From contig CAZVUC010000050.1 of NCBI GenBank assembly GCA_964630405.1, positions 8,948-72,947 on the forward strand: a stretch of 64,000 nucleotides of DNA. The letters run 5' to 3'. This document shows positions 2,135 to 29,223 of this stretch, in pieces. A program made the translations under genes and the position numbers. Below the pieces are notes generated by a model, which had not been told where the DNA came from, ran no database searches, and saw only the letters and a program-made list of their open reading frames with translations. The stretch comes from an uncultured Syntrophobacterales bacterium. Lineage in GTDB: Bacteria > Desulfobacterota > Binatia > UBA9968 > JAJDTQ01. How positions within the stretch are numbered: position 1 is the first letter of the stretch; every line of letters begins with the position of its first letter.

Positions 2135-2152
2135 CGTTTCCAGCGGGACGGT

Positions 2153-3469: not shown

Positions 3470-3644
3470 GGCGGTCCCGGGCGTCGAAGACGGGCAGTCG
3501 GTTCATACTTCTCTCCTCCGGCAGCGGGTGCGGTGCGTGCGGGCTCGGTGCGTTCAGGAAGACTACTTAACTAGGCAATCGCTCGGTCCGAGTCAATCGA
3601 GTGTCCGGTGTCCCGTCCGGTCAATGAATCGACCGGACAGGACA

Positions 3645-4877: not shown

Positions 4878-4892
4878 GGCGGTTTCGCGGCC

Positions 4893-12664: not shown

Positions 12665-13507
12665 TTACCGCACGGGCAGGGTCACGTCGTGCCGTTGCGT
12701 CGTTCCCGGGCTCACCGCCACCCGCCGCGATACCTCGCCCAGCCGTTCGTGCCAGAACCGCATATCGTAGGTTCCCGGCGGGATCCCATCGATGACGTAG
12801 TGGCCGCGGGAGCCGGTCACCGCGAAGAACGGGTTCGACGTCACCACGATGTAGGCGCTCATCCAGGCGTGGTGCAACTCGCAGATGATCCTTACGATGC
12901 CGGGTTGCCGGAGTGTCCTCGTCACCCGCCGCCAGCGGGGGATGCCGTCGTTGAACAGGGTCCGGGGTCCGATCCGGGCGTGGGCATCGTGGAGGATGAC
13001 GTCGCTGTTCAAGAGCAGCAGACTGCTGCCCACCGGGGCGGCCTGGACGTGGGGCGCGAACCGGCAGCCGATGTTGTCGAGCTGGAGGTTCCGGGGTTGC
13101 CCCTTCCGCCGGTCGAGGCCCGCGCCGTGCAGGGTGACGACGACATTTTTCAAGCCGCCGCCGGAAGCCGCCACCAGGCCCTGGTCGGGCACCATGGAGC
13201 CGCAGAAGGCCTGCTCCTTGTGGACCCGCAGGACGCCGGGAGGCGGCGGCGGGCCGGAAAGGCCTACCGTCCCGGCAAGGGCGCCGGTCCTTTCGGAAAG
13301 GGGGCGCGGCGCGGCGAGACGGCCTCCCGGCTGTGCCGCGGCGTCGCCGGCGACGGACCAGAGGGCGGCCAGCACCAGAGCTGCGGCGAGCGCCCGGCGA
13401 GGTTTCGGATCAACCTCGGGCCGGCGCGGCGCCGGTTTCGAACAAACAAAATCGGGAAGGCCCTTGTGGACCTTCCCGATTCGGATGAAGTTGGCTGCCG
13501 TGTTCAT
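12665..13507 (-). CDS. Secreted protein with a cupredoxin-like motif (C-x2-H-x3-M) and a C-terminal carboxypeptidase-regulatory-like beta-sandwich.
   Basis: Signal peptide MNTAANF...AALVLAALWSVAGDAAA. Candidate type-1 copper ligands HDAH...CELHHAWM. C-terminus YVIDGIPPGTYDMRFWHERLG. Start chosen at the internal ATG (13507). Confidence 0.45.
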   Translation of the reverse strand: MNTAANFIRIGKVHKGLPDFVCSKPAPRRPEVDPKPRRALAAALVLAALWSVAGDAAAQPGGRLAAPRPLSERTGALAGTVGLSGPPPPPGVLRVHKEQAFCGSMVPDQGLVAASGGGLKNVVVTLHGAGLDRRKGQPRNLQLDNIGCRFAPHVQAAPVGSSLLLLNSDVILHDAHARIGPRTLFNDGIPRWRRVTRTLRQPGIVRIICELHHAWMSAYIVVTSNPFFAVTGSRGHYVIDGIPPGTYDMRFWHERLGEVSRRVAVSPGTTQRHDVTLPVR

Positions 13508-13563
13508 GTTTCCGGGCAGTCCTCTGGGAGAACCGTCCCGGAGCGAGGCAAGCGTCGGCGGTT

Positions 13564-14481
13564 CTAGTGGGCCGACTCCTGAACGTTCAGGTTCACCAGC
13601 TCCGTGGCCGCCTCGTTCTCCGCCAGCATGCCCCAACTCTTGATCCAGGCGGCCGTGCGTTCCAGCTCGTCGGCCGGGATCGGCGCCGGATCCACCACCA
13701 CGATGCGGCTCTCGCGAAGCTCATCCGCGCGCAGGGCGGCGATCTCCGGATCATCGCTGTGGTAGTCGATGAAATACTGCATGTACTTCTTCTTGTCGGC
13801 GTTGACGCGGCGCACGGCCTCGCGCACGGCGCGGTTGAACATGCCGTAGGTTTCCGCGTCCACGTTCTCGGAGGCCACTTCGGTGCCGTGGAGAGAAGCG
13901 GAGACGACGATGCGGCAACCCTTCTTCTCGGCCAGCGTGAGGTAGGGCTCGGTCAACGGCGTGGACTCGATCTCCCCCTTCATCACCGAGTCCAGGCGGT
14001 AGCGGGAACCGCGGGGTGCCTGGCAGAGATTGATCGCGTCACGGGTGAGGAAGCCCTCGAGCATGTGGAGGGTCAGGTAGTGGGTGCCGAAGTAGAAAGG
14101 CACGCCAACCAGCTTGTGTGCGAGCTGCTGGGCGGTGTAGACCTCCGAGTCGGGCCGCACCACGAGTCCGGCGTAGGCGATGATGGAGCGCCGGCCGATC
14201 TGCCGTCCGGCGTCGACGCTGGAGTCCTGCACCCGGCAGTAGTTGCCCCACTCGCAGGCGTTGTACATGTCGGCCTTGCCCTGCTCGAACAGCATGCCGT
14301 GGCTGGCGTGCGGGTTCGCGTCCTTGGGGTCGGTCACGTCGGTGTGGGTATTCTTGTCGCCGGGGCCGCGGTCGGCAAACTCGATTTCGAGGCCTTCCTT
14401 TTCGAAGAGTCCCTCGTTGTATGCGACCAGCTCGCACAGACCCTGGAACGGCGCGGTGCTCTCAAGAACCAGCTTCTTCAT
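13564..14481 (-). CDS. NMT1/THI5-like periplasmic-binding-fold protein without a signal peptide (305 aa).
   Basis: Starts MKKLVLESTAPFQG. Shine-Dalgarno AAGGAGAG 5 nt upstream of the ATG at 14481. The 839-aa track ORF is an artefact. Confidence 0.7.
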   Translation of the reverse strand: MKKLVLESTAPFQGLCELVAYNEGLFEKEGLEIEFADRGPGDKNTHTDVTDPKDANPHASHGMLFEQGKADMYNACEWGNYCRVQDSSVDAGRQIGRRSIIAYAGLVVRPDSEVYTAQQLAHKLVGVPFYFGTHYLTLHMLEGFLTRDAINLCQAPRGSRYRLDSVMKGEIESTPLTEPYLTLAEKKGCRIVVSASLHGTEVASENVDAETYGMFNRAVREAVRRVNADKKKYMQYFIDYHSDDPEIAALRADELRESRIVVVDPAPIPADELERTAAWIKSWGMLAENEAATELVNLNVQESAH

Positions 14482-14586
14482 CTTGCTCTCCTTGTAGAAT
14501 GTTTTTACGTACCGGAGGGATCGCGGCGAAAGCCGGCCCTGTTGAAACTCCTCTAGCATGAATCCCGACCGGATGGCAATGCCATT

Positions 14587-15963
14587 TTGCTTTCGGTCCC
14601 GCGGGCGCCCGAAACCCCGATCTTGTCTCCCCGCCCGGCTTCGTGCCACACTGCCACCGTGCCGCCATCCTCGTCCACACGCCCCGAGCCCGCTGCCCGC
14701 GACTCCGGGGAGACCCGGTCCCTCAAGGATGTACAACAGTCCAGGGTTTCCTTCGGCGCGCTCCGGCAACCGCACTTCCGCGCCTACTTCTCCTACACCA
14801 TGCTGGCCATGATGGCCGACAACATCGAGCACGTGATCAGCTACTGGGTGATCTACGACCTGTTCAAGTGGGAAGAGCTGCAGGGGTTCGCGGTCATCAG
14901 CCACTGGTCGCCGTTCCTGCTGCTGTCCTGGTACGTCGGCCTCCTGTCGGACCGCTTCGACTGCCGCCGGGTGATCCAGTGGGCGATGATCCTCTATTTC
15001 GTTCTCACCATCGCCTGGGCCTGGTTCATCATCACCGGGACGCTCACGGTCTGGCACGCCTGTGCGTTGCTGGTGGTGCACGGCGTCGCCGGCGTCCTGT
15101 GGAGCCCCGGAGGCCAGCTCATCCTTCACGACATGGTGGGTCCCGAGCACCTGCAGAGCGCTGTCCGCCTCAGCGCCACCAGCCGGCAACTGGGGATCCT
15201 GGCGGGGCCGGCCCTGGGCGGATTCATGATGCGCGGGCTGGGCGCGGCGTGGGGTCTGGTGATAAACGCGCTGTTCTATATTCCACTGACCCTGTGGCTG
15301 TCCCGGGTACCCTATACCGGCCACCGCGCCCAGGAGGTGCAGGCGCGCCGGGTCACCTGGGCGCGGGCCCTGGAAGCGCTCCGGGAGGCCCGGAGCAACC
15401 ACGTCATCGTCTCGATGGTTTGCCTGGTGGGACTCTCCTCGCTGGTGGTCGGCAATGCCTTCCAGGCCCAGATGCCGGGGTTCGCCATCAAACTCGGGGT
15501 GGGGGAGGCTGGCTACAGCGTGCTGCTCGCCGCCAACGGCGCCGGCGCGTTCGTGAGCGGCGTGCTGCTGGAGAGCCGGGGGTTTCTCCAGGCCCGGGCT
15601 CGCACCGCCATCGTCCTGGCGCTCCTCTGGTGCGCCGCGTTGGGCATGTTCGCGTTCACGTCCCACTACTATCTGGCGGTGGCGCTCCTGTTCGCCGCCG
15701 GCTTCCTCAACCTGGCCTACCTGACCATGTCGCAAACCCTGGTGCAGCTTGTCTCGCCGGCCCACCTGCGCGGCCAGTTGATCGGCCTGTTCATCATGTC
15801 CGGCCTCGGGCTCCGCACCTTCAGCGGCGTCACCGTGGGGATCGCGGGCGGCGTCATCGGCATCCAGTGGTCCCTGGGGTTGAGCTGTGCGTTTCTGCTG
15901 GCGGTCATGCTGGTGCTGCTCGCGGTCACCGCCAGGTCTCGGGGCGACGAGGCCGGCCCCTGA
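14587..15963 (+). CDS. MFS transporter. The N-terminal 60 aa are Pro/Ser-rich, so the start is uncertain.
   Basis: About 12 transmembrane segments. Typical MFS motifs from FRAYFSYTMLAMMADNIEHV onward. Confidence 0.75.
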   Translation: MLSVPRAPETPILSPRPASCHTATVPPSSSTRPEPAARDSGETRSLKDVQQSRVSFGALRQPHFRAYFSYTMLAMMADNIEHVISYWVIYDLFKWEELQGFAVISHWSPFLLLSWYVGLLSDRFDCRRVIQWAMILYFVLTIAWAWFIITGTLTVWHACALLVVHGVAGVLWSPGGQLILHDMVGPEHLQSAVRLSATSRQLGILAGPALGGFMMRGLGAAWGLVINALFYIPLTLWLSRVPYTGHRAQEVQARRVTWARALEALREARSNHVIVSMVCLVGLSSLVVGNAFQAQMPGFAIKLGVGEAGYSVLLAANGAGAFVSGVLLESRGFLQARARTAIVLALLWCAALGMFAFTSHYYLAVALLFAAGFLNLAYLTMSQTLVQLVSPAHLRGQLIGLFIMSGLGLRTFSGVTVGIAGGVIGIQWSLGLSCAFLLAVMLVLLAVTARSRGDEAGP

Positions 15964-16073
15964 GGCCGGCCCGAACTGCCGCGTCTTGCCTGTCGTGTCC
16001 GCGTTTCGTAGTGTGTAGTCAGTGCTCCTCGTCACTCTTCCTCTGTCAACCTTCATGATGCTCCGATGAACAA

Positions 16074-16086
16074 GACACGACACTAG
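16074..16086. repeat. Solo copy of the element-A terminal motif GACACGACACTAG.
   Basis: 13/13 identity with the right-arm terminus of element A (48615-48627). It is immediately followed by CCGGACAG, which resembles the element-B terminus. Confidence 0.35.
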
Positions 16087-16177
16087 CCGGACAGCAAGTT
16101 ACGGTCTCGGGACGCGAGAGGGCAAATGCCTGCGCCGTTCGGGTTTCGGGGCGGACGATTCGCGAGGTGTTTCCGGG

Positions 16178-16651
16178 ATGGAAGCAGTTCCCAAAAAGAC
16201 TCTTTATCTTGCCAATCCCTACGGCTTTTCGTTGCAACAGCGAGAGGGCCCGCTGGCGGCGCTGACCGCGGCGTTGGAAGCGCTGGGGGTGGAGGTGTGG
16301 GAGCCGTTCGCGCGCAACAACCAGGTGGATAGGGCCGAGGCCGGCTGGGCGTATCGCATTGGACAGGCCGACCTGCGCGACGTCCGCGAAGCGGACGGCC
16401 TGTTCGCCGTGGTCAACGGATGCCCTCCGGACGAGGGTGTGATGGTCGAGCTGGGCATGGCCATAGCCTGGCGGAAACCGGTCTTTCTCTTCCGGGACGA
16501 CTTTCGCCGCTGCACCGACAGCGAGGCGTATCCCTTGAACCTGATGGTGTTCAGCGGCCTTCCGGAGGTCGGTTGGAAAGCCTGCTGGTATACCTCGGTG
16601 GCGGAGATCGCGGACCCCGAGAAGGCGCTGGCGCGTTGGCTGAACAGTTGA
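16178..16651 (+). CDS. Nucleoside 2-deoxyribosyltransferase-like (DNPH1/Rcl-like) protein.
   Basis: Family hallmarks: N-terminal LYLANPYGF and the conserved acidic DEGVMVELGMAIAWRKPVF segment. Confidence 0.65.
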   Translation: MEAVPKKTLYLANPYGFSLQQREGPLAALTAALEALGVEVWEPFARNNQVDRAEAGWAYRIGQADLRDVREADGLFAVVNGCPPDEGVMVELGMAIAWRKPVFLFRDDFRRCTDSEAYPLNLMVFSGLPEVGWKACWYTSVAEIADPEKALARWLNS

Positions 16652-16805
16652 CACGGCGTCGCTCGATCGACTATCATTTGCGGCGTGTCCCGGGGTGGTG
16701 CGGATGCGGAAAGCGGATGGGCCCGAACCGCCCTGTTGCAAGGGTTTTCCACTGATCGCTCAAACTGATGGCAAGTTCCGGCATGACTGACGCCGTTCGT
16801 TCGAG

Positions 16806-17255
16806 ATGGGCACTATGAGGGCGTCGCTTCCCCGCCTTTCGCTGGACCTCGAACCGGAGCTTTCGTCCGCCCTCAAGGAGTTGGCCGAGGCGGTGGCGCG
16901 CTTCGGAGAGGCGAACGGCCTTTCAAAGGCGCAGATCCACAATTTGAGCCTGGCCTTGGACGAACTGGCCACCAACACCATATCGTACGGTTTCGTCGAG
17001 GTGGACCGACAGGAGCTCCGGGTGGAGTTGCGCATCGAGGAGGACGAAGTCGTCGCGCAACTGGACGACACGGGGATCCCTTTCAATCCGTTCGAGGAAG
17101 CCGCTGCGCCGGACATACATGCGGCGCTCGACGACCGGCCCATCGGCGGTCTCGGGGTTTTCCTGACCAAGACCCTGTTTCCTAATCCCGACTACCAACG
17201 TACCGATGGGTTCAACCGTATTACGCTGCGCGCACCTGTGAAAGGAGACAGTTGA
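16806..17255 (+). CDS. Anti-sigma regulatory factor, a serine kinase of the RsbW/SpoIIAB-like HATPase family.
   Basis: Reads ...LDELATNTISYGF...GGLGVFLTKTLF. 149 aa. Lies immediately upstream of the STAS gene. Confidence 0.7.
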   Translation: MGTMRASLPRLSLDLEPELSSALKELAEAVARFGEANGLSKAQIHNLSLALDELATNTISYGFVEVDRQELRVELRIEEDEVVAQLDDTGIPFNPFEEAAAPDIHAALDDRPIGGLGVFLTKTLFPNPDYQRTDGFNRITLRAPVKGDS

Positions 17256-17594
17256 TGGCAAACGGAAGCGTTTTGGATCTCAGCACGGAGACGGACGGCG
17301 ATACCACGGTCGTCATCCCCTCCGGCCGCATCGACGGCAGTACGGCCAGCCCGTTCCAGGAGGCTCTTCTGAAGCTGATCGAGGAAGGGAAGGGCTCGCT
17401 CGTGGTGGACTTCGAGAACATCGAATACATCAGCAGCGCCGGTCTCCGGGTCCTGCTGCTTGCCGCCAAGCAACTCCAGGCCGGCGGCAGGAAGATCGTG
17501 CTCTGCGCCATGCGAGACCATATTGCCGAGGTGTTCAAGATCAGCGGCTTCAGTGAGATCCTCGCCATTCATCCCACGCGTCAGGACGCGATCG

Positions 17595-17605
<11 letters not shown>
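17252..17605 (+). CDS. STAS-domain anti-sigma-factor antagonist (RsbV/SpoIIAA-like).
   Basis: 117 aa. Reads ...VVDFENIEYISSAGLRVLL..., which carries the conserved phosphorylatable-Ser context. Overlaps both neighbours by 4-11 nt. Confidence 0.8.
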
Positions 17606-18803
<1,198 letters not shown>

Positions 18804-18814
18804 GACCGAAATTC

Positions 18815-20017
18815 GTGCACGTCTTCGCGCGGTTCGCTGTCGTGCCGTTGCTGGTGGCGATGACATCGTTGGCCACCGTCTCGCACTCCACCGCGCAGAC
18901 ACCGCCGCCGGGTTCCGTCACGCCCGGCATCGGTCCGGCCAGCGTCATGTTCGGCCAGTCCTGCGCCCTGAGCGGACCCGCCAAGGCCTTGGGCGAAGGG
19001 ATGCGGCTGGGCATTACGGCCGCTTTCGAGGAGGCGAATCGAGCCGGCGGTATCCACGGCCGGAGGTTGCGTCTCACCACCCTCGACGACCGTTATGAGC
19101 CCGAGGCGGCCATCGCCAACACCGACCGCCTCATCAACCAAGAGCACGTATTCGCCCTGATTGGCGCGGTGGGGACGCCGACCTCAAAGGCGGCTGAGCC
19201 CATCGCGACGGAAGCTGGCGTTCCCTATGTCGGCGCCTTCACCGGGGCGGAGTTCCTGCGCGACGCGCGCAAACGTCCCACCGTCATCAACGTACGCGCC
19301 TCCTATTACCAGGAGACCGAGGAGATGGTGGAGCGGCTCACCCGGGACCTTGGGGTGGAGCGCATCGGCATCCTCTATCAGGACGACTCCTACGGCCGCG
19401 CGGGGCTTTCGGGAACGTTTCAGGCGCTGCACCGGCGCGGCATGACGCTGGCCGCGGAGGCCACCTATCCGCGCAACACCCGGGCCGTCAAGACCGCGGT
19501 GCTGGACCTGAGGTACGGCAACCCCGAGGCGGTCATCATCGTGGGCGCCTACCAGCCGGTGGCTACATTCATCAAGTGGTCCCGGCGCCTCGGTTTCAAT
19601 CCCATCTTCGTGAACATCTCCTTCGTCGGCAGCTCGGCGCTGGCCAAGGCCCTGGGCTCTTCGGGCAAGGACGTCATCGTCACCCAGGTGGTGCCTTTCC
19701 CCCACGACAAATGGATTCCCGTCGTCGCCCGATACCATGAATCCCTTCACGCCGTGGCGCCGGACGCGGAGCCCGGCTTCGTTTCCCTCGAGGGATATCT
19801 GACCGGGCGGGTGGCCGTGGAGGCGCTGCGCCGGGCGGGACCCGGGCTTACCCGGAGGGGGTTCATCGCCGCCCTCCAAAAGGCCGGCACCATGGATCTG
19901 GGCGGCTTCATGCTGCTCTATGGGGAATCCGACAACCAGGGCTCCGATCGGGTCTATCTGACCGTGATCGACGACTCCGAGCGGTTTCGTTCGATCCGGC
20001 GCCTGGAGCGGCCGTGA
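18815..20017 (+). CDS. Periplasmic binding protein of type I (Leu/Ile/Val-binding fold), probably a sensor-associated ligand-binding protein.
   Basis: Signal peptide present. PBP1 fold. Its stop overlaps the start of the histidine kinase gene (ATGA). Confidence 0.8.
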   Translation: MHVFARFAVVPLLVAMTSLATVSHSTAQTPPPGSVTPGIGPASVMFGQSCALSGPAKALGEGMRLGITAAFEEANRAGGIHGRRLRLTTLDDRYEPEAAIANTDRLINQEHVFALIGAVGTPTSKAAEPIATEAGVPYVGAFTGAEFLRDARKRPTVINVRASYYQETEEMVERLTRDLGVERIGILYQDDSYGRAGLSGTFQALHRRGMTLAAEATYPRNTRAVKTAVLDLRYGNPEAVIIVGAYQPVATFIKWSRRLGFNPIFVNISFVGSSALAKALGSSGKDVIVTQVVPFPHDKWIPVVARYHESLHAVAPDAEPGFVSLEGYLTGRVAVEALRRAGPGLTRRGFIAALQKAGTMDLGGFMLLYGESDNQGSDRVYLTVIDDSERFRSIRRLERP

Positions 20018-22167
20018 GTCTCGCAGACCTCTTCAAGCGGGTCGAGGGCTGGCGCATCGGCCTCGGCGCCAAGATGTACACCGCTTTCGGCGCCGGAGTG
20101 CTGCTGATGCTGGCAGCCAGCGTCGTGGCCTTGGTGGCTTTCAGGGTCGTCAGCAATTCACAGCGTTACATTACCGAGCAGAGCGTGCCCAGTCTGGTGG
20201 CGGCCATCCGGGCCGCGCAGACGAGCTCGGCTCTCGTCGACGCGGCGCCTCGCCTCGTTTCCGCCTCCTCCGAAACGGAGCTCGCCGAGGTCAAGGCGGC
20301 CATGGCCAAGGACCGGGAACTGCTCGACAAGCTGATCGACGAGCTCCGAATGGGCGAGTCGCTGGAGAATCAGGAACAGGCGCGCGCCCTCCGCTCCCTT
20401 TCCGACGCCCTTGCCACCACGCTGGAGAAGATCGAGCAGTCGTCGTCGCGACGGCGGGAGACCCAGCGGCGGCTGGATGCCCGCGAGGCCGAGATCCCGG
20501 TCATGACCCGGCAGATCGATCGTATTCTGGTGCCGGAGATCGACGATCAGCAGTTCTTTCTCGCCACCGGGCTCAGGGAGCTCGACGACCGGCCGGTGCC
20601 TCCCGGGGAGCGCACGTCCTACGCGGAACTGGTGCGCTATCGGGATCTGCTGACCCTGCATACCCAGGCCAACCTTGCCGCGAGGCTACTGGCGGAGGCC
20701 GCGGTGCTGAACGACCGGACCCTGATACAGCCTCTCCGGGAGCGCTACAACGCCGCCCTCGGCTCCTTCGAGCGCGCGTTCCGATCCTCCGAGTCCCGTG
20801 CTTCTCCCACCCGGATGCTCGACTTCGAGTTCGAACGGCTCAAGTCGTTGGGAGAGGGCCCCGAGGGGATATTCGGCCTTCAGGAAGGCATCCTGAGAGA
20901 AGCGGAGATGGAGATCCGCTACATCGAGGAGAACAGGGCCACCGCGTCCAGACTGCTGGCGGCCATGGACCGGGTGGTGGCGGTGGCGGACCGCCAGGCG
21001 GACGAAGCCAGCAACGCCTCCACGTCGGCCGTGAACACGAGCATGGTCGTGCTGGTGGTCCTCAACGTGGTGAACGTGATCGGGGCGGTCGCGCTCGGTT
21101 GGATCTTCGTCGGCCGCTACCTGATCCGGCGCCTGACCGGATTGGCCGCGTCCATGCGTTCCATGGCCGAAGGCAACCTCGAGGTGCCGGTGGAGGTCCG
21201 CGGCAACGACGAGGTGAACGACATGGCGGACGCTCTGGAGGTGTTCCGGAAGCACGCCCTGGAAGTGCAGCGGCTCAACCTGGTGGAGAAGCTCGCCGAT
21301 GAGCTGCAGGAGAAGAACGTCGAGCTGGAGCAGACGCTCAAGGACCTGAAGACCGCGCAGCACCAGGTCATCATGCAGGAGAAGCTGGCATCGCTGGGAC
21401 AGCTCACCGCCGGCATCGCCCACGAGATCAAGAACCCTCTCAATTTCGTCAACAATTTCTCCGAGGTCTCCGGCGAGTTGATCGAGGAGGCGCGGGAGGT
21501 CCTGGGGGAGGTCCGCGAGCAGGTCCCCGATGACGCCCGTGACGAGATCGAGGGGATACTCGACGACTTGACCGCCAATCTCGAGAAGATCAACCAGCAC
21601 GGCAAGCGCGCCGACGGCATCGTGCGCAGCATGCTGGACCACTCACGGGCTCAGTCCGGCGAGCGTCGCGCGGTGGATCTGAACGCGCTGCTCAAGCAGT
21701 ACGCCGATCTCGCCTACCATGCCATGCGCGCCAAGGATCAGCAGTTCAACGTGACCTGGGAAGAGGATCTGGACGGCGGGATGGGCGAGATCGAGGTCGT
21801 GCCCCAGGACTTGAGCCGCGTCTTCCTCAACCTCGTGACCAACGCCTGCCACGCGACCTTCGAACGGGCCAAATCGGACGGCGACTACGAGCCGCGGATC
21901 CGGTTGTACAGCAAGCGTGAGGAAAACCAGGTGGAGTTCCGGATCGGGGACAACGGGCCCGGGATTCCCCAGGACATGATCAAGAAGATCTTCGAGCCTT
22001 TCGTCACCACCAAACCCACCGGGGAAGGCACCGGACTCGGACTTTCCCTCTCCCAGGACATCGTCGCCCAGCACGGAGGCCTCATGGGCGTGAAGTCGGA
22101 GCCGGGCGTGTTCACGGAGTTCTGGATCACCATCCCGGCCGACGGCTCGGTATCCGCCGGCGTGTAG
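20014..22167 (+). CDS. Sensor histidine kinase with two transmembrane segments, HAMP, HisKA and HATPase_c domains.
   Basis: H-box LGQLTAGIAHEIKNPL. N, G1 and G2 boxes DNGPGIP...GTGLGLS. Confidence 0.85.
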   Translation: MSLADLFKRVEGWRIGLGAKMYTAFGAGVLLMLAASVVALVAFRVVSNSQRYITEQSVPSLVAAIRAAQTSSALVDAAPRLVSASSETELAEVKAAMAKDRELLDKLIDELRMGESLENQEQARALRSLSDALATTLEKIEQSSSRRRETQRRLDAREAEIPVMTRQIDRILVPEIDDQQFFLATGLRELDDRPVPPGERTSYAELVRYRDLLTLHTQANLAARLLAEAAVLNDRTLIQPLRERYNAALGSFERAFRSSESRASPTRMLDFEFERLKSLGEGPEGIFGLQEGILREAEMEIRYIEENRATASRLLAAMDRVVAVADRQADEASNASTSAVNTSMVVLVVLNVVNVIGAVALGWIFVGRYLIRRLTGLAASMRSMAEGNLEVPVEVRGNDEVNDMADALEVFRKHALEVQRLNLVEKLADELQEKNVELEQTLKDLKTAQHQVIMQEKLASLGQLTAGIAHEIKNPLNFVNNFSEVSGELIEEAREVLGEVREQVPDDARDEIEGILDDLTANLEKINQHGKRADGIVRSMLDHSRAQSGERRAVDLNALLKQYADLAYHAMRAKDQQFNVTWEEDLDGGMGEIEVVPQDLSRVFLNLVTNACHATFERAKSDGDYEPRIRLYSKREENQVEFRIGDNGPGIPQDMIKKIFEPFVTTKPTGEGTGLGLSLSQDIVAQHGGLMGVKSEPGVFTEFWITIPADGSVSAGV

Positions 22168-22222
22168 ACGGCCCGACGCCGGTAGTCCGCCAGGACCCCT
22201 CGGTCCCGGCGGACCACCCGAG

Positions 22223-23656
22223 TCAGCCGCTGTTGCGGATCGCGTCGGCGTCGTCGGGATCGGGCATGACCACGAACTCGGGGTACGCCTCGATGCCGAG
22301 TTCCCCGGCGTCCTGCCCGAGTTCCTCCACGGACAGCGATACCCGCACTCCCATGAGATGCTTCAGCGCCATCCAGAGCAGCCACGACACCGCGAACACG
22401 AAGACGCCGATGGCCACCACTCCGACCAGTTGTACGCCGAAGTGTCCGCCGGCGACGATGCAGGTGGCAAGGGTCCCCCAGATGCCCGCGAACAGGTGGA
22501 CCGGAATCGCGCCGACGACGTCGTCCACCTTGAGCAGTTCCAGCAGCCTCAAGCCGGCCACGCAGATGCCCCCGCCGACCGCGCCGATGATCACCGCCCA
22601 GTAGTGGCCGGCGAAGTCGGGTCCCGCCGTAATGGACACCAGGCCCGCCAGGGCGCCGTTGAGGCCCGCCATCAGGTCGATGCGCCCGAGCAGGGGCCGC
22701 TCGATCACGAGGGCGACCAGAAACCCCGCGGCCCCGGCCAGGTTGGTGTTGACCAGGATGTGGCTGATGGCCACCGCATCGGCGGCGCCGCCCAGGGCAA
22801 GCTGCGAGCCGCCGTTGAAACCGAACCATCCGAGCCACAGGATGAAGACGCCCAGGGTGACGATGGGGATGTTGGAAGGAGGCGTGGCCTTGACGTTGCC
22901 GTCGGCGCGGAACTTGCCGCGCCGGGCCCCCACCACGATGGCCCCCGCCAGCGCCGCCCAGCCTCCGGTGGAATGGACGATGGTGGAGCCCGCGAAGTCC
23001 TTGAAGCCCATGGCGCCCAGCCATCCGCCGCCCCAGGTCCAGGCGCCGACGATGGGATAGAGGATGCCCGTCAGTACGATGATGAACACGAAGAAGGTCC
23101 AGAGCTTCACACGTTCGGCCAGCGTGCCGGAGACGATGGAGGCGGTGGTGGCCACGAATACCATCTGGAAGAACCAGTCCGACATCGTCGCGTAGTCGGA
23201 CTTGATCACCGCCTCGGTCGCCGCCGCCCTGGTCTGGTCCGTAGCCGACAAGAGGGCGACTTCTTCCGCCGTAGGTCCGTAGAAGGGAGTGAAGGTGCCG
23301 ATGAAGCTGCCCACCTCCACGTACATCAGGTTGTAGCCGATGAAGAAGTACATGATCCCGGCGATGGCGTAGAGGCCCATGTTCTTGAGGCAAATCATGG
23401 AGACGTTCTTCGTCCGCACCGAACCCGACTCGAGCATGGTGAAGCCCGCGCACATCCACATCACCAGGGCGCCCCAGATGAGGAAGGAGAACGTGTTCAG
23501 AACGAACTGCGCCTCCTTGTCCAGGGCGGCGTCCGCAGCCGTCGCCAACCAGAAAAAGCCCAGCGCCGCGGCGAGTGCCCCCGCCGCGGCCAAGCGGCCG
23601 AAGTGTCCGCCGAGACCGAATACGTTTGTGAGAATGCCGTATTTTCTCATGTCCAC
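22223..23656 (-). CDS. amt: Ammonium transporter.
   Basis: 477 aa. Amt/MEP family motifs, signal peptide, 11 transmembrane segments. GGAGG Shine-Dalgarno. Confidence 0.95.
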   Translation of the reverse strand: MDMRKYGILTNVFGLGGHFGRLAAAGALAAALGFFWLATAADAALDKEAQFVLNTFSFLIWGALVMWMCAGFTMLESGSVRTKNVSMICLKNMGLYAIAGIMYFFIGYNLMYVEVGSFIGTFTPFYGPTAEEVALLSATDQTRAAATEAVIKSDYATMSDWFFQMVFVATTASIVSGTLAERVKLWTFFVFIIVLTGILYPIVGAWTWGGGWLGAMGFKDFAGSTIVHSTGGWAALAGAIVVGARRGKFRADGNVKATPPSNIPIVTLGVFILWLGWFGFNGGSQLALGGAADAVAISHILVNTNLAGAAGFLVALVIERPLLGRIDLMAGLNGALAGLVSITAGPDFAGHYWAVIIGAVGGGICVAGLRLLELLKVDDVVGAIPVHLFAGIWGTLATCIVAGGHFGVQLVGVVAIGVFVFAVSWLLWMALKHLMGVRVSLSVEELGQDAGELGIEAYPEFVVMPDPDDADAIRNSG

Positions 23657-23747
23657 GGTACCTCCGGTTTCATCGAATTCGCCTGCAAACCTCCAGGTCC
23701 TCCGGCCCGGTCACGGGTCCGCTCATCCTGTCCGGCCGGCCATGCTC

Positions 23748-25163
23748 CTAGATGTGGTAGTAGTGGAAGAACTCCGCCGGGACGGGATGGAGGAACACAT
23801 CCTTCGACTCCTGCTCCTTGAACGCGATGTAGTGGTCGATGACATCCTGCGTGAAGACACCGCCCTCCAGCAGGAAGTCGTGGTCCGCACCGAGGGCCGC
23901 CACCGCTTCCTCCATGGAGGTGGGAACGGAAGGAATACCGGCCGCTTCCTCGGGGCTGAGCTCGTATATGTCCGTGTCGGTGGGGTCGCCGGGGTCGATG
24001 CGGTTGCGTATGCCGTCAAGGCCCGCCATCAACATGGCGGAAAAGGCCAGGTACGTGTTGGCGGAAGGGTCCGGAGGGCGGAACTCGATGCGTTTGCTGG
24101 CAGCCGAGGTCTCGTAGGTGGGGATGCGGACCGCGGCCGAACGGTTGCGCGCCGAGTAGGCCAGGTAGACCGGCGCCTCGAAGCCGGGCACCAGACGCTT
24201 GTAGGAGTTGGTCGTGGGGGCGCAAAAGGCCAGCAATGACGGGCTGTGCTTGAGCAGTCCGCCGATGTAGTGCCGCGCCAACTCCGACAACTCGGCATAG
24301 CCGCCGGCGTCGTAGAAGAGCGGCGTATCGCCGAGCCACAGCGACTGATGCACGTGCATGCCGCTGCCGTTGTCGCCGAACAGGGGCTTGGGCATGAAGG
24401 TCGCGGTCTTGCCGTGGGCCTTGGCCACGTTGCGGACGATGTGCTTGTACCATTGGGTCTCGTCGGCTTTCCGGCGCAGGGTCTGGAAGCGGGTCGCGAT
24501 CTCGCCCTGGCCGCCCGTCGCCACCTCGTGGTGATGGACCTCGAACTCGAGGCCGACCTGCTCCATCTTCTCCGCCATCTCCCAGCGCAGGTCCGCGAGC
24601 TGGTCGAACGGGGGAATGGGCGAATAGCCCTGCTTGGGCGGAATCTTGTAGCCCAGGTTGTGGTCGTCCTCCTCCCGGGCCGAGTTCCAGTCGGCCTCGT
24701 CGGAGTCGACGATGTGGAACGACGAGTTGAGCTTCATGCCGAAGCGCACGTTCTCGAATACGAAGAACTCGAGCTCCGGACCGAAGAACGCCTTATCGGC
24801 GATGCCGGAGGCGTTGAGGTGAGCTTCCGCCTTGGTGGCGACGTAGCGCGGGTCGCGGGTGTAGCGATCACCGTTCACCGGGTCCACGACGTCGCAGATG
24901 AGCTTGAGGGAGGGTTCCGACTCCACCGGATCGATGCGGGCGGTGTCCAGATCCGGAACCAGCAGCATGTCGGACTGGTCGATGGACTGGAAGCCGCGCA
25001 GGCTGGAGCCGTCAAAGCCCTGACCGCGTTCGACGAGGCTTTCCTTCACTCTGGAAGGAGGTATCGAAAAGTGTTGCCAACGGCCGATGAGGTCGGTGAC
25101 CAAGAGGTCGACACGCCGTACGTTGTTGTCCGAAATCAGTTTCTGAACGTCCTCAAGTGTCAT
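23748..25163 (-). CDS. glnA: Glutamine synthetase type I.
   Basis: 471 aa. GS-I colinear, with the adenylylation-site region and NSYKRLVPGFEAP motifs. Confidence 0.95.
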   Translation of the reverse strand: MTLEDVQKLISDNNVRRVDLLVTDLIGRWQHFSIPPSRVKESLVERGQGFDGSSLRGFQSIDQSDMLLVPDLDTARIDPVESEPSLKLICDVVDPVNGDRYTRDPRYVATKAEAHLNASGIADKAFFGPELEFFVFENVRFGMKLNSSFHIVDSDEADWNSAREEDDHNLGYKIPPKQGYSPIPPFDQLADLRWEMAEKMEQVGLEFEVHHHEVATGGQGEIATRFQTLRRKADETQWYKHIVRNVAKAHGKTATFMPKPLFGDNGSGMHVHQSLWLGDTPLFYDAGGYAELSELARHYIGGLLKHSPSLLAFCAPTTNSYKRLVPGFEAPVYLAYSARNRSAAVRIPTYETSAASKRIEFRPPDPSANTYLAFSAMLMAGLDGIRNRIDPGDPTDTDIYELSPEEAAGIPSVPTSMEEAVAALGADHDFLLEGGVFTQDVIDHYIAFKEQESKDVFLHPVPAEFFHYYHI

Positions 25164-25357
25164 AATGGGTCTCCTTCAGCCGGCTTGCTCCGATGATCTT
25201 GTGGTGAGATACCAAATTTGCTTTCTATCGCATAACACATGTCGCATATCGTAACGAGGATCACAGATCGGATCGGTTTCCTGCCGTCGATTTTCGTCAT
25301 GCACGTTCGAACGGCCCGCGGTCGGCAAGGCGGCCGCGAGGCCGTTGGAGGCCCGCC

Positions 25358-27082
25358 ATGGTCATGATGTGGCGTCTCGGGATCGCCGTGTCGTTGTTCG
25401 CGGTTCTGGCCGGGGGCTCGGCCCATGCCGTCGAGTTGAATCTGCCTTATCGGGAAGAGGGGTTGAGCCGCGAACAAGCCGCGGCATATCTCCTGGAGCG
25501 TTTCGCTTTCGGCCCGCGGCCGGGAGAGGTGGAGCAGGTGGCCAGGCTGGGGCCGGCGAAGTGGTTGGCGCGGCAGCTGGCGGGCCAGCTGCCGGATCCC
25601 GGGCTCGACGAGCGGCTGAAGGCGTTCCCAGCCCTGGCCATGACGCAGGCGGAGATACACGAGGTCTACGTGTCCAACGGACGGCTCCGCCGGCGGATGC
25701 AGAGTGAAGGGGTACTGGATCCGGCGGGCACGTCGCGCGCGGAGATGAGGAGGAAGATGGCGCGGTACCGCGAGAAGCACGGCCTGCAACCTTACCACCG
25801 CCTCTTCAACCGGGAGCTTCGCGGGCAGAAGCTCGTGCGGGCCGTCTACGGCGAGGACCAGCTCGCGGAGGTCCTGACGAGTTTCTGGTTCAACCACTTC
25901 AACGTGACCACGCGCAATCGCGGCGCGCGCAGCCGCGTGTTGACCTATGAACGCGACGCCATCCGCCCTCACGTGCTGGGGAAGTTTCGCACGATGCTGG
26001 GGGCGACGGCGAAGCATCCGGCCATGCTCTACTATCTCGACAACGTGCGGTCGCGCATGGCGCCGCCGGGCCGGAACCGGCCGGTGCAGGGCGGCACGGG
26101 CATGGCGGGAGGGATGATGGCCGCCGCCCCTGCCGAGCGGCCGCGCAAGTTCGGTTTGAACGAGAACTACGCCCGGGAGCTGATGGAGTTGCACACGCTG
26201 GGCGTGGACGGCGGCTACACGCAACGGGACGTCACGGAGGTGGCGCGCGTGCTGACCGGATGGGGCGTCATGCCCTACGGCGAGCGGCGAACGAAAATTG
26301 AGCAGCGCATCGCGAGGGGAAACCGGAACCTCGTCCGGCAGGGTGAGTTCCTGTTCCGGAAACGTCGGCACGACACCGGAGCCAAGGTGGCGTTGGGGGT
26401 GAAGTTCCCGCCGGGAGGCGGCGTGGAGGAAGGCGAGCGGACCCTGGACCTGCTCGCGGAGCATCCGTCCACGGCGCGCTTCATCTCGACCAAGCTGGCG
26501 CGCCGGTTCGTGAGCGATCATCCGCCGGAGGCCCTGGTGGCGCGCATGGCCGGAATGTTCGCCCGAACCGGCGGCGACCTGGCCGCGGTGATGGCGACCC
26601 TCGCGCAATCGCGCGCCTTCTGGGCCGAGGCCCGGACGCGCGGCAAGATGAAATCGCCGTTCGAGCTGGTGGCGAGCTCCCTGCGCGCGCTGGACGCGGA
26701 CGTGAGGCGCTCGCGGCCGGTCATGCAGTGGCTGGAACGCATGGGTCAGCCCCTTTACGGCTACACGCCCCCCACGGGCCATCCGGACTATGCCTCGTCG
26801 TGGATGAACTCGGGCGCCCTCATCGCGCGCATCAACTTCGGCGTGCATCTCGCCGGCGGCCGCATCAAGGGGATTTCCCTCAAGCGTTTGCCCAAGCGGC
26901 GGCGGCGCGACGTGATGACGACGGACAAGGCCCTGGCGGTTTACGGCGCGTTGCTGCTGCCCGCGCGGGATACCCGCGAGATCGCGTCGGAGGTCCGGAA
27001 AACGATCCCACGGGATGCCGAGCGCAAGGACATGAAGGTGGCCGGCATGTTGTTGGCTTCGCCGGAGTTTCAATACCGGTAG
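25358..27082 (+). CDS. DUF1800 domain protein, secreted.
   Basis: Signal peptide. DUF1800 colinearity. Paired with the DUF1501 gene downstream. Confidence 0.8.
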   Translation: MVMMWRLGIAVSLFAVLAGGSAHAVELNLPYREEGLSREQAAAYLLERFAFGPRPGEVEQVARLGPAKWLARQLAGQLPDPGLDERLKAFPALAMTQAEIHEVYVSNGRLRRRMQSEGVLDPAGTSRAEMRRKMARYREKHGLQPYHRLFNRELRGQKLVRAVYGEDQLAEVLTSFWFNHFNVTTRNRGARSRVLTYERDAIRPHVLGKFRTMLGATAKHPAMLYYLDNVRSRMAPPGRNRPVQGGTGMAGGMMAAAPAERPRKFGLNENYARELMELHTLGVDGGYTQRDVTEVARVLTGWGVMPYGERRTKIEQRIARGNRNLVRQGEFLFRKRRHDTGAKVALGVKFPPGGGVEEGERTLDLLAEHPSTARFISTKLARRFVSDHPPEALVARMAGMFARTGGDLAAVMATLAQSRAFWAEARTRGKMKSPFELVASSLRALDADVRRSRPVMQWLERMGQPLYGYTPPTGHPDYASSWMNSGALIARINFGVHLAGGRIKGISLKRLPKRRRRDVMTTDKALAVYGALLLPARDTREIASEVRKTIPRDAERKDMKVAGMLLASPEFQYR

Positions 27083-27096
27083 CGGAAGGCACCGTC

Positions 27097-28359
27097 ATGG
27101 GATGGACCCGAAGAGCCTTGATCAAGGGCGGCGGCTTGGCGTTGATCTCGCTTTCGCTGGGGGGCACGCCGCCGTTCCTGCGCCGCGCCGCCGTCGCCGC
27201 CGGCGATCCGTTGCCTTACGGACGCCGGAAAGTGCTGGTGGCGCTCTTTCAGCGAGGCGCCATGGACGGGTTGATGGCGGTGACGCCCATCCACGACCCG
27301 GCGCTGGCCGCCGCGCGCCCCAACCTGTTCATGAGCTTGAGGCGGGGGGACACGGCTCTCGACGGACGTTTCGCCATGCATCCCGCGTTCGCGCCGCTGT
27401 TGCCGCTGTACCGGGAGGGACGCCTGGCGGTGGTGCACGGGGTGGGTTCGGTCCACAAGACGCGCTCGCATTTCGATGCGCAGGACTACATGGAGATGGG
27501 CACGCCGGGCGTGAAGAGCACGCCGTCGGGGTGGCTCAACCGAGCCGCCGGGCTGCTCGGGCGGCCGGCGTCTTCGGCCCGGATGGTGGCGCTCACCGAC
27601 AAGCTGCCGCGGTCGTTCTACGGCGACCGCCCCGCCGTCGCCGTGGACGACCTGCAGTCCTTCGGCATCCGGGTCCCGGACGACCCGGAGGCTTCGGAGA
27701 GGTTTCGGACGGGCTTTGCGTCCATGTACGCCGGAAGCGCGAAACGTCTCGCCCGGCGGGTGGGCAGGGAAAGCTTCGAGGCGGTCGAGGTGTTGAGGAA
27801 GACCGACTGGAGCGGCTACCGCCCCGGAGACGGAGCCGTGTACCCCGATTCGGCGCTGGGCCGGCGCCTGAGACAGGTGGCCATGCTCATCAAGGCGGAG
27901 GTGGGGCTCGAAGTGGCCTTCACCGAGACCGGCGGTTGGGATACGCACGTGAGGCAGGGCACCACGGCCGGTTCCTTCGCGGACCGGGCCGCTGACCTGT
28001 CACGGGCGCTGGCGGCCTTCTGGACCGATCTCGGCCCGTATCAGGACGACGCGGTGCTCCTCACCATGACCGAGTTCGGGCGCACGGTGGAACAGAACGG
28101 TTCGCTGGGCACCGACCACGGCCGCGGGTCCTGTCTGTTCGTCCTCGGCAACGAAGTGGAAGGCGGCAGGGTGCACGGCACGGTGCCGGACCGGCTGGTG
28201 AGGGATGCGCTCGAAGACGGCCGCGATCTGCCCGTGACCACCGATTTCCGTTCCGTGTTCGCCGAGGTGGCCGGCAGACATCTGGGCATCCCGCGTTCCG
28301 ACGACGGCGTGGTGTTCCCTGGTTGGGAGGGCCGGCGGCGCAGGTTGATGAAAAACTAG
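27097..28359 (+). CDS. DUF1501 domain protein with a Tat-type signal (RRALIKGG).
   Basis: Start at the internal ATG 27097, with GGAAGG Shine-Dalgarno. 420 aa. Canonical DUF1800/DUF1501 pair. Confidence 0.8.
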   Translation: MGWTRRALIKGGGLALISLSLGGTPPFLRRAAVAAGDPLPYGRRKVLVALFQRGAMDGLMAVTPIHDPALAAARPNLFMSLRRGDTALDGRFAMHPAFAPLLPLYREGRLAVVHGVGSVHKTRSHFDAQDYMEMGTPGVKSTPSGWLNRAAGLLGRPASSARMVALTDKLPRSFYGDRPAVAVDDLQSFGIRVPDDPEASERFRTGFASMYAGSAKRLARRVGRESFEAVEVLRKTDWSGYRPGDGAVYPDSALGRRLRQVAMLIKAEVGLEVAFTETGGWDTHVRQGTTAGSFADRAADLSRALAAFWTDLGPYQDDAVLLTMTEFGRTVEQNGSLGTDHGRGSCLFVLGNEVEGGRVHGTVPDRLVRDALEDGRDLPVTTDFRSVFAEVAGRHLGIPRSDDGVVFPGWEGRRRRLMKN

Positions 28360-28372
28360 GACAGGCTCCTAG
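28359..28372. repeat. Solo copy of the element-B terminal motif GGACAGGCTCCTAG. It spans the stop codons of two convergent genes.
   Basis: 14/14 identity with the right terminus of element B (62474-62487). The palindromic CTAG supplies TAG stops on both strands. Confidence 0.35.
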
Positions 28373-29223
28373 CCCTCCATTCTCTCGATGAAGACTTCCG
28401 TTTCGAGGGTCGAGCCGGCGGCCCCGCGGAAGACGCCGCGGGTCGGCGGGACATCGGCGTAGTCGCGCCCGACCGCTACCCGGATGTGCCGCTCGTCGCC
28501 TTCGGTGTCGTTGGTGGGGTCGAATCCGACCCACCCGAGTCCGGGGAACCAGCATTCCACCCAGGCGTGGCTCTCGCACCTCGCCACCCCGGCCTCGGGA
28601 GGACCGAGATAACCGGACACGTACCGGCACGGCAGCCCCCAGCCGCGCAGGACGGCGGCCATGACGTGAGCGTAGTCCTGGCATACGCCCCGTCCGGTCT
28701 CGAGAATCCGGTCGATGGGTGAATCCACCCGGGTTTCTCCCGGGACGTACTCGAACACCCCGTGAAGTTTTGCGCAGAGAGCCCGGGCGTCCACCAGAGG
28801 GTCCTCCCCCCGGGTGATGTCGTGGGTTTCCATGAACTTCGCCAGCGCCGGGGTCCAATCGACGAAACGGCTGGGGTGGGCCATCGGCCAGAACTCAACG
28901 GTCGCCGCCGCGCGCCGGATCGCCTCGGCGGCGCCGGCGTCCAGCCGCTCGGGTGTGGGTGCCAACGGGCCCACCTCCACCGTGGATCGGACGGTGACCG
29001 CGAACCGTTCGTGGTCACGGGCCCGGTCGAGGAAATACCCCGTATTGCCGAAGGGGTCGGTGAAATCGAACAGCAAACCGTCCGGATCGGTGGCAATGGA
29101 GAATTCCCGGACAAGCTGGGTGCGGTCGCGGACCGGACACACGTACAGCGTCATCACCGAGTCCCTGGCGGCCGCGGCGTACCTGAAATGCATGCGGTGT
29201 TCGATGGCGTAGGTGACGATCAA
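28369..29223 (-). CDS. Transglutaminase-like protein (N-terminal Bact_transglu_N domain plus transglutaminase core).
   Basis: 284 aa with Cys-His-Asp core motifs (GVCQDYAHV...HAWVECW...GFDPTN). Confidence 0.8.
   Translation of the reverse strand: MIVTYAIEHRMHFRYAAAARDSVMTLYVCPVRDRTQLVREFSIATDPDGLLFDFTDPFGNTGYFLDRARDHERFAVTVRSTVEVGPLAPTPERLDAGAAEAIRRAAATVEFWPMAHPSRFVDWTPALAKFMETHDITRGEDPLVDARALCAKLHGVFEYVPGETRVDSPIDRILETGRGVCQDYAHVMAAVLRGWGLPCRYVSGYLGPPEAGVARCESHAWVECWFPGLGWVGFDPTNDTEGDERHIRVAVGRDYADVPPTRGVFRGAAGSTLETEVFIERMEG

Follow-up and report, generated by a model that had tools for sequence, protein, structure and literature searches.

In Bacillus cereus, a partner switch receives its input from a two-component pair, the histidine kinase RsbK and the phosphatase RsbY. 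The kinases of partner switches can act as anti-sigma factors, as RsbW does with SigB and the kinase domain of CrsR with RpoS, and in HsbR the receiver, PP2C, and kinase domains are combined in one protein. On the side of solute sensing, TorT docks on the sensor domain of the histidine kinase TorS and relays ligand binding, and the review of binding-protein-stimulated sensors describing this does not include any pair of a Peripla_BP_6 protein and a sensor kinase (PMC8050422). Here, we describe a locus in a stretch of 64,000 nucleotides from an uncultured Syntrophobacterales bacterium (contig CAZVUC010000050.1; the whole stretch is called the window, and all coordinates are positions in it), which encodes an RsbW-like protein, a STAS-domain protein, a response-regulator phosphatase (REC-PP2C), a periplasmic binding protein, and a membrane histidine kinase. 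The reading that we prefer, and to which we give even chances, is that these genes form a horizontally spread five-gene signalling module with a binding-protein input, whose output governs a nitrogen-linked set of ammonium transporter (Amt) and amidoligase genes or their products.

Domains were assigned with Pfam, and equivalog-level checks were made with the cut-offs of NCBIfam. The original prediction for this DNA had described a cassette of six co-directional genes, the first one coding for a nucleoside 2'-deoxyribosyltransferase (NDT), and all six open reading frames (ORFs) are indeed present on the forward strand with the domains ascribed to them (Table 1). The unit is, however, five genes and not six, starting with the RsbW-like gene and ending with the histidine kinase gene. 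The overlapping or tightly spaced gene ends that had been claimed are found at four of the five junctions but not at the junction of the NDT and RsbW-like genes, which are separated by 154 nt. The ORF of the STAS gene opens with a TTG at 17252, and the likely start is the ATG at 17255, which is preceded by the ribosome-binding site AAAGGAG and overlaps the TGA of the RsbW-like gene by 1 nt. Similarly, the ORF of the REC-PP2C gene opens at 17460 and its likely start is the ATG at 17595, resulting in an overlap of 11 nt with the STAS gene; an identical product of 402 residues has been called in another assembly. The gap between the PP2C stop and the start of the binding-protein gene is 11 nt, and the GTG of the kinase gene overlaps the stop of the binding-protein gene by 4 nt (GTGA). 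The five genes are thus arranged such that they are probably translationally coupled, or nearly so. Terminators were not found between the module genes; a single site on the forward strand is located within the PP2C gene, and such sites are less frequent than expected by chance. The gap in front of the RsbW-like gene contains the sole strong sigma-70-like match in the scanned region 15500-23000, which is identical in a relative of 94% identity (L002; L-numbers denote the compared genome or metagenome loci) and of which the TTGACA is retained in L003. It is promoter-like and, by its match to the consensus, a candidate promoter. An Rfam scan of 13000-26000 at E<=1 gave zero matches, so that no riboswitch or leader RNA accounts for this gap. 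The third-position G+C content is 0.75-0.83 in the NDT and the five module genes versus 0.87-0.91 in the flanking MFS, amt, and glnA genes. The low values of the block 16070-22167 are compatible with, and hint at, acquired foreign DNA.

Table 1. Positions of the module genes, the candidate promoter, and the neighbouring genes in the window.
Feature	Position	Strand	Support
NDT (nucleoside 2'-deoxyribosyltransferase), 157 aa	16178-16651	+	PF05014 Nuc_deoxyrib_tr 1.6e-27
Sigma-70-like promoter match TTGACA-18-TATCAT	16648-16677	+	11/12 consensus match
RsbW-like GHKL serine kinase / anti-sigma-type protein (predicted), 149 aa; alternative start 16815	16806-17255	+	PF13581 HATPase_c_2 7e-18
STAS-domain antagonist (predicted), 116 aa	17255-17605	+	PF01740 8.9e-20
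REC-PP2C (Response_reg + SpoIIE), 402 aa	17595-18803	+	PF00072 1e-21; PF07228 2.9e-52
Periplasmic solute-binding protein, LivJ/amide/urea family, 400 aa, N-terminal signal peptide	18815-20017	+	PF13458 Peripla_BP_6 4.7e-58
Membrane histidine kinase, 717 aa, HAMP + HisKA + HATPase_c	20014-22167	+	Pfam
Ammonium transporter Amt, convergent with the module	22223-23656	-	PF00909 1.1e-97
Glutamine synthetase type I glnA, upstream of amt	23748-25163	-	L002/L003 orthologues with Gln-synt_N + Gln-synt_C
Transglutaminase-like protein	28369-29223	-	Bact_transglu_N + Transglut_core
Alpha-E domain protein	29220-30194	-	PF04168 7.6e-61
Circularly permuted (CP) ATP-grasp amidoligase-type protein	30201-31661	-	PF14403 8e-154; PF04174 4e-137

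Related loci were collected in two independent surveys. The genome survey was based on relatives of the REC-PP2C protein with one genome per species, yielding at least 80 loci, all listed ones from species other than that of the window, to which the window proteins were compared by tblastn. The metagenome survey used the sensor region of the kinase as query, and its best 80 loci (L094-L173) were analysed. REC-PP2C homologues are numerous. Together with the binding protein and the kinase, the phosphatase is found in at least 33 genome loci, 30 of which contain all five genes, and the five-gene unit is present in more than 100 loci from at least nine phyla. The genome loci belong to Nitrospirales, Dehalococcoidia, Gemmatimonadota, Gamma- and Alphaproteobacteria, Latescibacterota, Acidimicrobiia, Acidobacteria, and Bacteriovoracaceae. 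The commonest gene order is STAS, REC-PP2C, RsbW-like, binding protein, and kinase, while the RsbW-like gene comes first in the window's lineage. The periplasmic sensor domain of the kinase has 275 cluster representatives among 1.84 billion (E<=1e-3), and the module family is therefore small and rare overall. Between phyla, the module proteins share 50-76% identity, suggesting that the five-gene unit may have spread horizontally among sponge symbionts of several phyla. When every ORF of 31 module loci with 10-kb flanks was compared all against all, the Amt gene and the amidoligase cluster were the only further recurrent families; sigma factor, ABC transporter, GGDEF, EAL, and flagellar families do not recur. 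In one lineage, a restriction-modification gene of the MmeI family is located directly 3' of the module (L004 15465-18326, L006 8425-11259).

The module is concentrated in the microbiomes of marine sponges. By manual count, with the origin read from the accession prefixes of the metagenomes (PMC5099237), 56 of the best 80 metagenome loci are from three Mediterranean sponge metagenomes (Petrosia ficiformis LXNJ, Sarcotragus foetidus LXNI, and Aplysina aerophoba MKWU), and the seawater assembly of this study contributes none. Single sponge metagenomes hold dozens of distinct variants of the module. The contigs with 93-97% identity to the window proteins are from LXNJ and MKWU, close homologues are found in metagenome-assembled genomes (MAGs) labelled 'Deltaproteobacteria bacterium' by NCBI, and many of the loci from the genome survey (L007-L038) bear names of sponge symbionts. 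The module is thus a candidate marker for the sensing of environmental nitrogen by sponge symbionts.

The RsbW-like, STAS, and PP2C proteins probably represent a complete partner-switching set, as had been proposed, because all three pass the domain and motif tests. The RsbW-like protein scores 65 bits against the HATPase_c_2 model (cut-off 27.4), and an alignment with 28 orthologues shows its N-box (ELxxN), G1 (DxG), and G2 (GGLG) motifs in essentially every one of the 29 sequences; the L014 sequence is a truncated tblastn fragment that stops short of the G2 motif. Its single match in the PDB is RsbW (6M36, E=1e-4), and it is predicted to belong to the GHKL serine kinases at the level of the superfamily only. 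The STAS protein scores 84 bits with TIGR00377, above the cut-off of 53.45, and has TM1442, SpoIIAA, and RsbV as relatives in the PDB. Its motif YISSAGLR is kept in 26 of 28 aligned sequences, and we take the serine of this motif to be at the position equivalent to Ser58 of SpoIIAA, which is phosphorylated in SpoIIAA/RsbV. In the REC-PP2C protein, whose phosphatase domain scores 178 bits (PF07228), the receiver residues D27/D28, D76 (the acceptor), S104, and K126 do not vary among 21 sequences that are 57-94% identical, and neither do the metal-binding aspartates D200, D218, D338, and D390/D391 of the PP2C domain. The PF00072 match together with these residues bears out that the phosphatase carries a response-regulator receiver. 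The closest solved protein is the REC-PP2C 3EQ2 of Pseudomonas aeruginosa (E=4e-24). For all three proteins the relatives in the PDB are at the superfamily level, and the proteins score far below the NCBIfam equivalog cut-offs. In a scan of the predicted proteins from 836 to 50553 of the window, which covered all but glnA and a few ORFs that are short or in gap regions and did not extend to 50.5-64 kb, sigma-factor families of Pfam were not detected, which agrees with the earlier claim that no sigma factor is encoded nearby.

The histidine kinase contains, in this order, a first transmembrane helix, a sensor of a double four-helix bundle, a second transmembrane helix, and the HAMP, HisKA, and HATPase_c domains. 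The centres of the transmembrane helices are at residues 34 and 353, the H-box HEIKNP is at position 470, and the N, G1, and G2 boxes are present. HATPase_c is the C-terminal domain, and the kinase is non-hybrid, having neither a receiver nor an Hpt domain. The TorS model TIGR02956 matches the N-terminal 419 residues with 4e-28 (model positions 1-402) and the periplasmic part alone with 8e-7, and a distant homologue of the kinase carries the Pfam domain TorS_sensor (PF21689). Sequence searches against the PDB returned kinase-core matches only, TorS not being among them, and the relation to TorS is visible from the NCBIfam profile and from the fold search. The AlphaFold2 model of residues 1-419 is all helical (predicted local distance difference test, pLDDT, 83.8), and in a Foldseek search of the PDB the six top-ranking matches, with E-values from 5e-7 to 8e-4, are without exception TorS sensor domains, among them those of the TorS-TorT complexes 3O1H, 3O1I, and 3O1J. 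The target-normalised TM-scores of these six matches are 0.60-0.84, and 0.79-0.84 for the five chains from Vibrio parahaemolyticus. Judged from the model, the sensor of the kinase would be a bimodular four-helix bundle of the TorS type. The kinase is nevertheless not a TorS orthologue: it is non-hybrid, its partner is a Peripla_BP_6 protein and its regulator a REC-PP2C protein, and the full sequence reaches 174 bits with TIGR02956 compared to the cut-off of 676.5.

The best solved relative of the binding protein is 4KV7 (1.8e-72), which carries the generic name of a probable leucine/isoleucine/valine-binding protein and was not used as evidence for the ligand. Among the 60 related metagenome loci with at least 3 kb of sequence upstream of the kinase, the binding-protein gene is directly upstream of the kinase gene in 58 and a REC-PP2C gene is found upstream in all 60. 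Thus, the predicted coupling of the binding protein to the HAMP kinase holds, given the GTGA overlap, the TorS-type sensor, and the adjacency of the genes. In the 31 module loci, families of ABC permeases or ATPases do not recur beside the binding-protein gene. Because a TorS-type sensor is combined with an adjacent secreted binding protein without ABC genes, binding-protein-dependent sensing by the kinase is the best reading and is supported by the analogy to TorT and TorS. Marks of a two-component pair of kinase and REC-PP2C protein are the histidine of the H-box, the acceptor D76, and the REC-PP2C gene in all 60 loci.

The evidence for the output comes from the genes next to the module. To our knowledge, the biochemical function of the cluster of CP-ATP-grasp, Alpha-E, and transglutaminase genes has not been characterised since its description by comparative genomics. 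In Burkholderia cenocepacia the cluster is strongly dependent on NtrC and sigma-54 under nitrogen limitation (PMC5491218), and in marine metagenomes the domains of the amidoligase cluster co-vary with those of urea metabolism (PMC3597751). Orthologues of the window's Amt (63-75% identity) adjoin the module in L009, L011, L014, L025, and L037 and in 12 of 39 long metagenome loci, and orthologues of the CP-ATP-grasp protein (61-76% identity) adjoin it in many loci. Amt or amidoligase genes are present within 10 kb in 11 of 29 dereplicated module loci versus none of the 51 control loci, which are from more distant REC-PP2C relatives without the pair of binding protein and kinase (Fisher p=3e-6). 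The link was replicated in the metagenomes, with 13 of 37 loci outside the window's lineage. The synteny of glnA with the module is restricted to the window's lineage. In L004-L006, the Alpha-E gene is directly upstream of the RsbW-like gene and overlaps it by 4 nt. In L008, L009, L021, L032, L132, L139, and L143 the Amt/amidoligase genes are co-directional and contiguous with the module, and in L032 and L143 every gene is co-directional. The arrangement in L014, L147, L161, and L163 is RsbW-STAS-Amt-CP_ATPgrasp-AlphaE-TGase on one strand, divergent from the genes of the REC-PP2C protein, the binding protein, and the kinase. In these four loci, the RsbW-like and STAS genes appear to share an operon with the Amt and amidoligase genes.

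Some further observations concern the neighbouring genes themselves. In several Dehalococcoidia-type loci (L009 15206-19082, L011 15578-19280, L132 2335-6300), amt is located between the CP-ATP-grasp and Alpha-E genes, and this position inside the amidoligase cluster ties the cluster to ammonium independently of the signalling module. In the window, a DUF1800 gene (25358-27082) and another ORF on the forward strand, possibly coding for DUF1501, the usual partner of DUF1800, are inserted between glnA and the transglutaminase gene (25358-28359), while L002 and L003 do not have this insertion. Control of the NtrC type is unsupported here, because sigma-54 matches are fewer than expected and none is in the relevant intergenic regions. 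Near the start of the window, four MFS_1 transporter paralogues of 410-448 residues each are encoded in tandem on the reverse strand (836-6239).

How the module would work we infer from the domain content, the motifs, the fold, and the strict co-conservation of the five genes, and this applies to the phosphotransfer steps, the sign of the regulation, the ligand, and the target alike. The secreted LivJ-family protein would bind a small ligand in the periplasm; a nitrogen-containing solute is a guess from the protein family and the genomic context. Either in its ligand-loaded or its ligand-free form, the binding protein would dock on the TorS-type sensor and modulate the kinase, comparable to TorT on TorS. 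The kinase would phosphorylate the receiver of the REC-PP2C protein, which is the sole receiver domain in the operon, and the PP2C domain would dephosphorylate the phosphorylated STAS protein at the conserved serine, opposing the RsbW-like serine kinase. The STAS protein might subsequently swap partners and capture the RsbW-like protein, or the reverse, by which a target would be freed or captured. The recurrent, and sometimes apparently operonic, joining of the module and the Amt/amidoligase cluster suggests that this nitrogen-linked gene set, or its products, would be under the control of the output. Such an effect could be direct, by protein-protein contact, or involve an unlinked sigma factor. 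The target is the weak point of the mechanism, and we favour the tie to the Amt/amidoligase set on account of the gene neighbourhoods.

Several observations weigh against this interpretation. About two thirds of the module loci do not have an Amt or amidoligase gene within 10 kb, and the link is thus not obligatory. Where it exists, the genes may be together because they were transferred on one island, and not for reasons of regulation. In the window, a search for sigma-54 sites (TGGCAC-N5-TTGC, <=2 mismatches) gave 41 matches versus 61 expected, with none near the amt, glnA, and ATP-grasp genes. The RsbW-like protein matches the RsbW, RsbA, and SpoIIAB models weakly and far under their cut-offs. 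Also, the binding protein and TorT are from different families, and the docking of the former on the sensor is suggested by analogy only.

The most serious rival is a classical anti-sigma switch, in which the RsbW-like protein would sequester a sigma factor encoded elsewhere and the Amt and amidoligase genes would be passengers of an island. The three core proteins match the families of anti-sigma factors, antagonists, and PP2C phosphatases, and the many module loci without nitrogen-related neighbours fit such a switch as well. According to the literature, many Gram-negative partner switches have unlinked targets, for example HsbR-HsbA and RpoS in Pseudomonas (PMC6482189). Against this view, sigma-factor families do not recur in the 10-kb flanks of the 31 loci and are not found among the window proteins scanned from 836 to 50553, and the Amt/amidoligase genes, including those in apparent operons with the RsbW-like and STAS genes, are enriched far above the controls. 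A module moving between phyla would also need a compatible sigma factor in each recipient. We therefore regard an unlinked sigma factor as possible, with a probability well below even. An effector of another kind bound by the STAS protein has to be taken seriously as well. In this case the STAS protein itself would be the output, binding a diguanylate cyclase or, as HsbA does, FlgM, and the module would control biofilm formation or motility and not nitrogen. Precedents exist in HsbA and SiaC of Pseudomonas and SypA of Vibrio, and the usual gene order STAS, REC-PP2C, RsbW-like corresponds to that of hsbA and hsbR, the domains of HsbR being divided between two genes. Since GGDEF, EAL, and flagellar families do not recur beside the module in the 31 loci, and the only recurrent neighbours are the Amt gene and the amidoligase cluster, we think this unlikely, and clearly less probable than the unlinked sigma factor.

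The preferred reading, an output on the Amt/amidoligase set, can be extended to a more specific but doubtful scenario, which we rank somewhat above the STAS-bound effector. The module might be a sensory device of the sponge symbiosis, passed on horizontally between symbionts of many phyla, in which the binding protein detects a nitrogen compound derived from the host or the community, and the STAS and RsbW-like proteins act directly on Amt, on the amidoligase system, or on both, without a sigma factor. If this were true, the module would be the first regulatory handle on the amidoligase system and would represent a gating of ammonium assimilation that does not involve PII.

The NDT gene needs to be considered separately because in the original prediction it was part of the cassette, with an NDT/DNPH1-like product that might make or degrade a nucleotide-derived signal or be an effector of the partner switch. 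The gene has the same direction as the module, which it immediately precedes, and it shares the lower third-position G+C content (0.75 compared to 0.87-0.91 in the flanks). The window's lineage has retained this arrangement (L002, L003, and L094-L096, down to about 80% protein identity), but it is restricted to that lineage: NDT genes were found in none of the 37 metagenome loci of at least 15 kb outside this lineage and in none of the other genome loci. The test for co-conservation, which the original prediction had itself proposed, thus speaks against the NDT gene as a component. In addition to the gap with its promoter-like site, the similarity to a characterised enzyme argues against a signalling role. 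The protein scores 96 bits with PF05014 (cut-off 28.8) and is about 70% identical over 151-152 residues to CtNDT of the cyanobacterium Chroococcidiopsis thermalis (8RH3/8QC0/8PQP-T; E=3e-69), for which structures and kinetics have been published and Y7, D62, E88, and D111 are the catalytic residues (PMC10913048). The similarity extends over the whole length, and the nucleophilic glutamate and the set of one tyrosine and two aspartates are kept as Y10, D65, E91, and D114, while Ser10 of CtNDT is replaced by Asn13. The NDT protein has more than 4,000 homologous clusters, thousands of orthologues stand alone, and more than 100 of the clusters are 81-100% identical, from MAGs labelled Deltaproteobacteria, Nitrospira, Rhodospirillales, and Gammaproteobacteria. 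Such an unusual conservation would point to a very strong constraint on the protein or else to its recent dispersal between phyla. Four orthologues with 82-89% identity are located in four unrelated neighbourhoods without any partner-switch gene. As judged from these comparisons, the NDT is probably an ordinary nucleoside-salvage enzyme and an unrelated neighbour in the window's lineage, and we consider its participation in a six-gene cassette very improbable. A function as anti-phage defence effector was also considered and dropped, because the PADLOC defence models matched none of the six proteins at E<=0.001. Ruling out the NDT removes one false lead.

The surroundings of the NDT gene differ between loci. 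In L002, an additional AAA_14/DUF4143 ATPase gene is found between the MFS and NDT genes (6951-8522) but not in the window, which points to a recent rearrangement just upstream of NDT. In sponge-associated Nitrospira (L090-L092; 4762-5361 / 1209-1808), the NDT orthologue is divergent to a small gene with a RelA_SpoT domain (alarmone synthetase-like) and upstream of a sodium:solute symporter gene and of a gene coding for a fusion of MFS, acyltransferase, and AMP-binding domains.

Compared to the known systems, the REC-PP2C protein has the same two-domain architecture as the RssB-type REC-PP2C of P. aeruginosa (3EQ2/3F7A), whose model NF045505 is also the best NCBIfam match (1.2e-35). It reaches 123 bits versus the cut-off of 700 bits, however, and is not an orthologue of RssB, and the genomic partners differ. 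The HptB-HsbR-HsbA system of Pseudomonas and the CrsR-CrsA system of Shewanella are similar in being Gram-negative, in having a receiver-bearing phosphatase and a STAS partner, and in that their targets are encoded elsewhere (PMC6482189). HsbR and CrsR unite the receiver, PP2C, and kinase domains in a single protein, which obtains its input from an Hpt relay, whereas here the REC-PP2C protein and the kinase are encoded by separate genes and the operon has a built-in pair of binding protein and histidine kinase. The RsbK-RsbY-RsbV-RsbW-SigB system of B. cereus also leads from a dedicated histidine kinase through a REC-PP2C protein to a STAS antagonist that is opposed by the RsbW kinase. In contrast to the window kinase, RsbK is a hybrid kinase with other sensor domains and does not have a binding protein as partner. 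Furthermore, sigB is part of the cluster in B. cereus whereas no sigma gene accompanies the window's module, and the sequence similarity is at the superfamily level only.

On the sensing side, the closest system is TorT-TorS, which senses trimethylamine N-oxide in Vibrio parahaemolyticus and E. coli (3O1H, 3O1I, 3O1J, 3I9Y, 3I9W). In both systems a binding protein without transporter is encoded beside a membrane kinase, and both kinases have a sensor of stacked double four-helix bundles, the model of the window kinase matching the TorS sensors best. The differences are that the binding protein is a Peripla_BP_6 protein of the LivJ family and not of the TorT family, that the kinase is non-hybrid, and that the regulator is a REC-PP2C protein instead of TorR, which is of the OmpR type. 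Thus, each half of the module has a known counterpart, TorT-TorS for the sensing and RsbK-RsbY or HptB-HsbR for the two-component input into the switch, and the module is orthologous to none of them. New are the fixed combination of the five genes, the pairing of a LivJ-family binding protein with a TorS-type sensor, a unit of more than 100 loci without a recurrent sigma gene, and the link to the Amt gene and the amidoligase cluster. Partner switches without sigma factors are common, and most of them have no known target. The module described here offers a defined input, in which a LivJ-family binding protein is combined with a TorS-type kinase, and also a candidate for the output neighbourhood with statistical support, namely the Amt gene together with the cluster of CP-ATP-grasp, Alpha-E, and transglutaminase genes.

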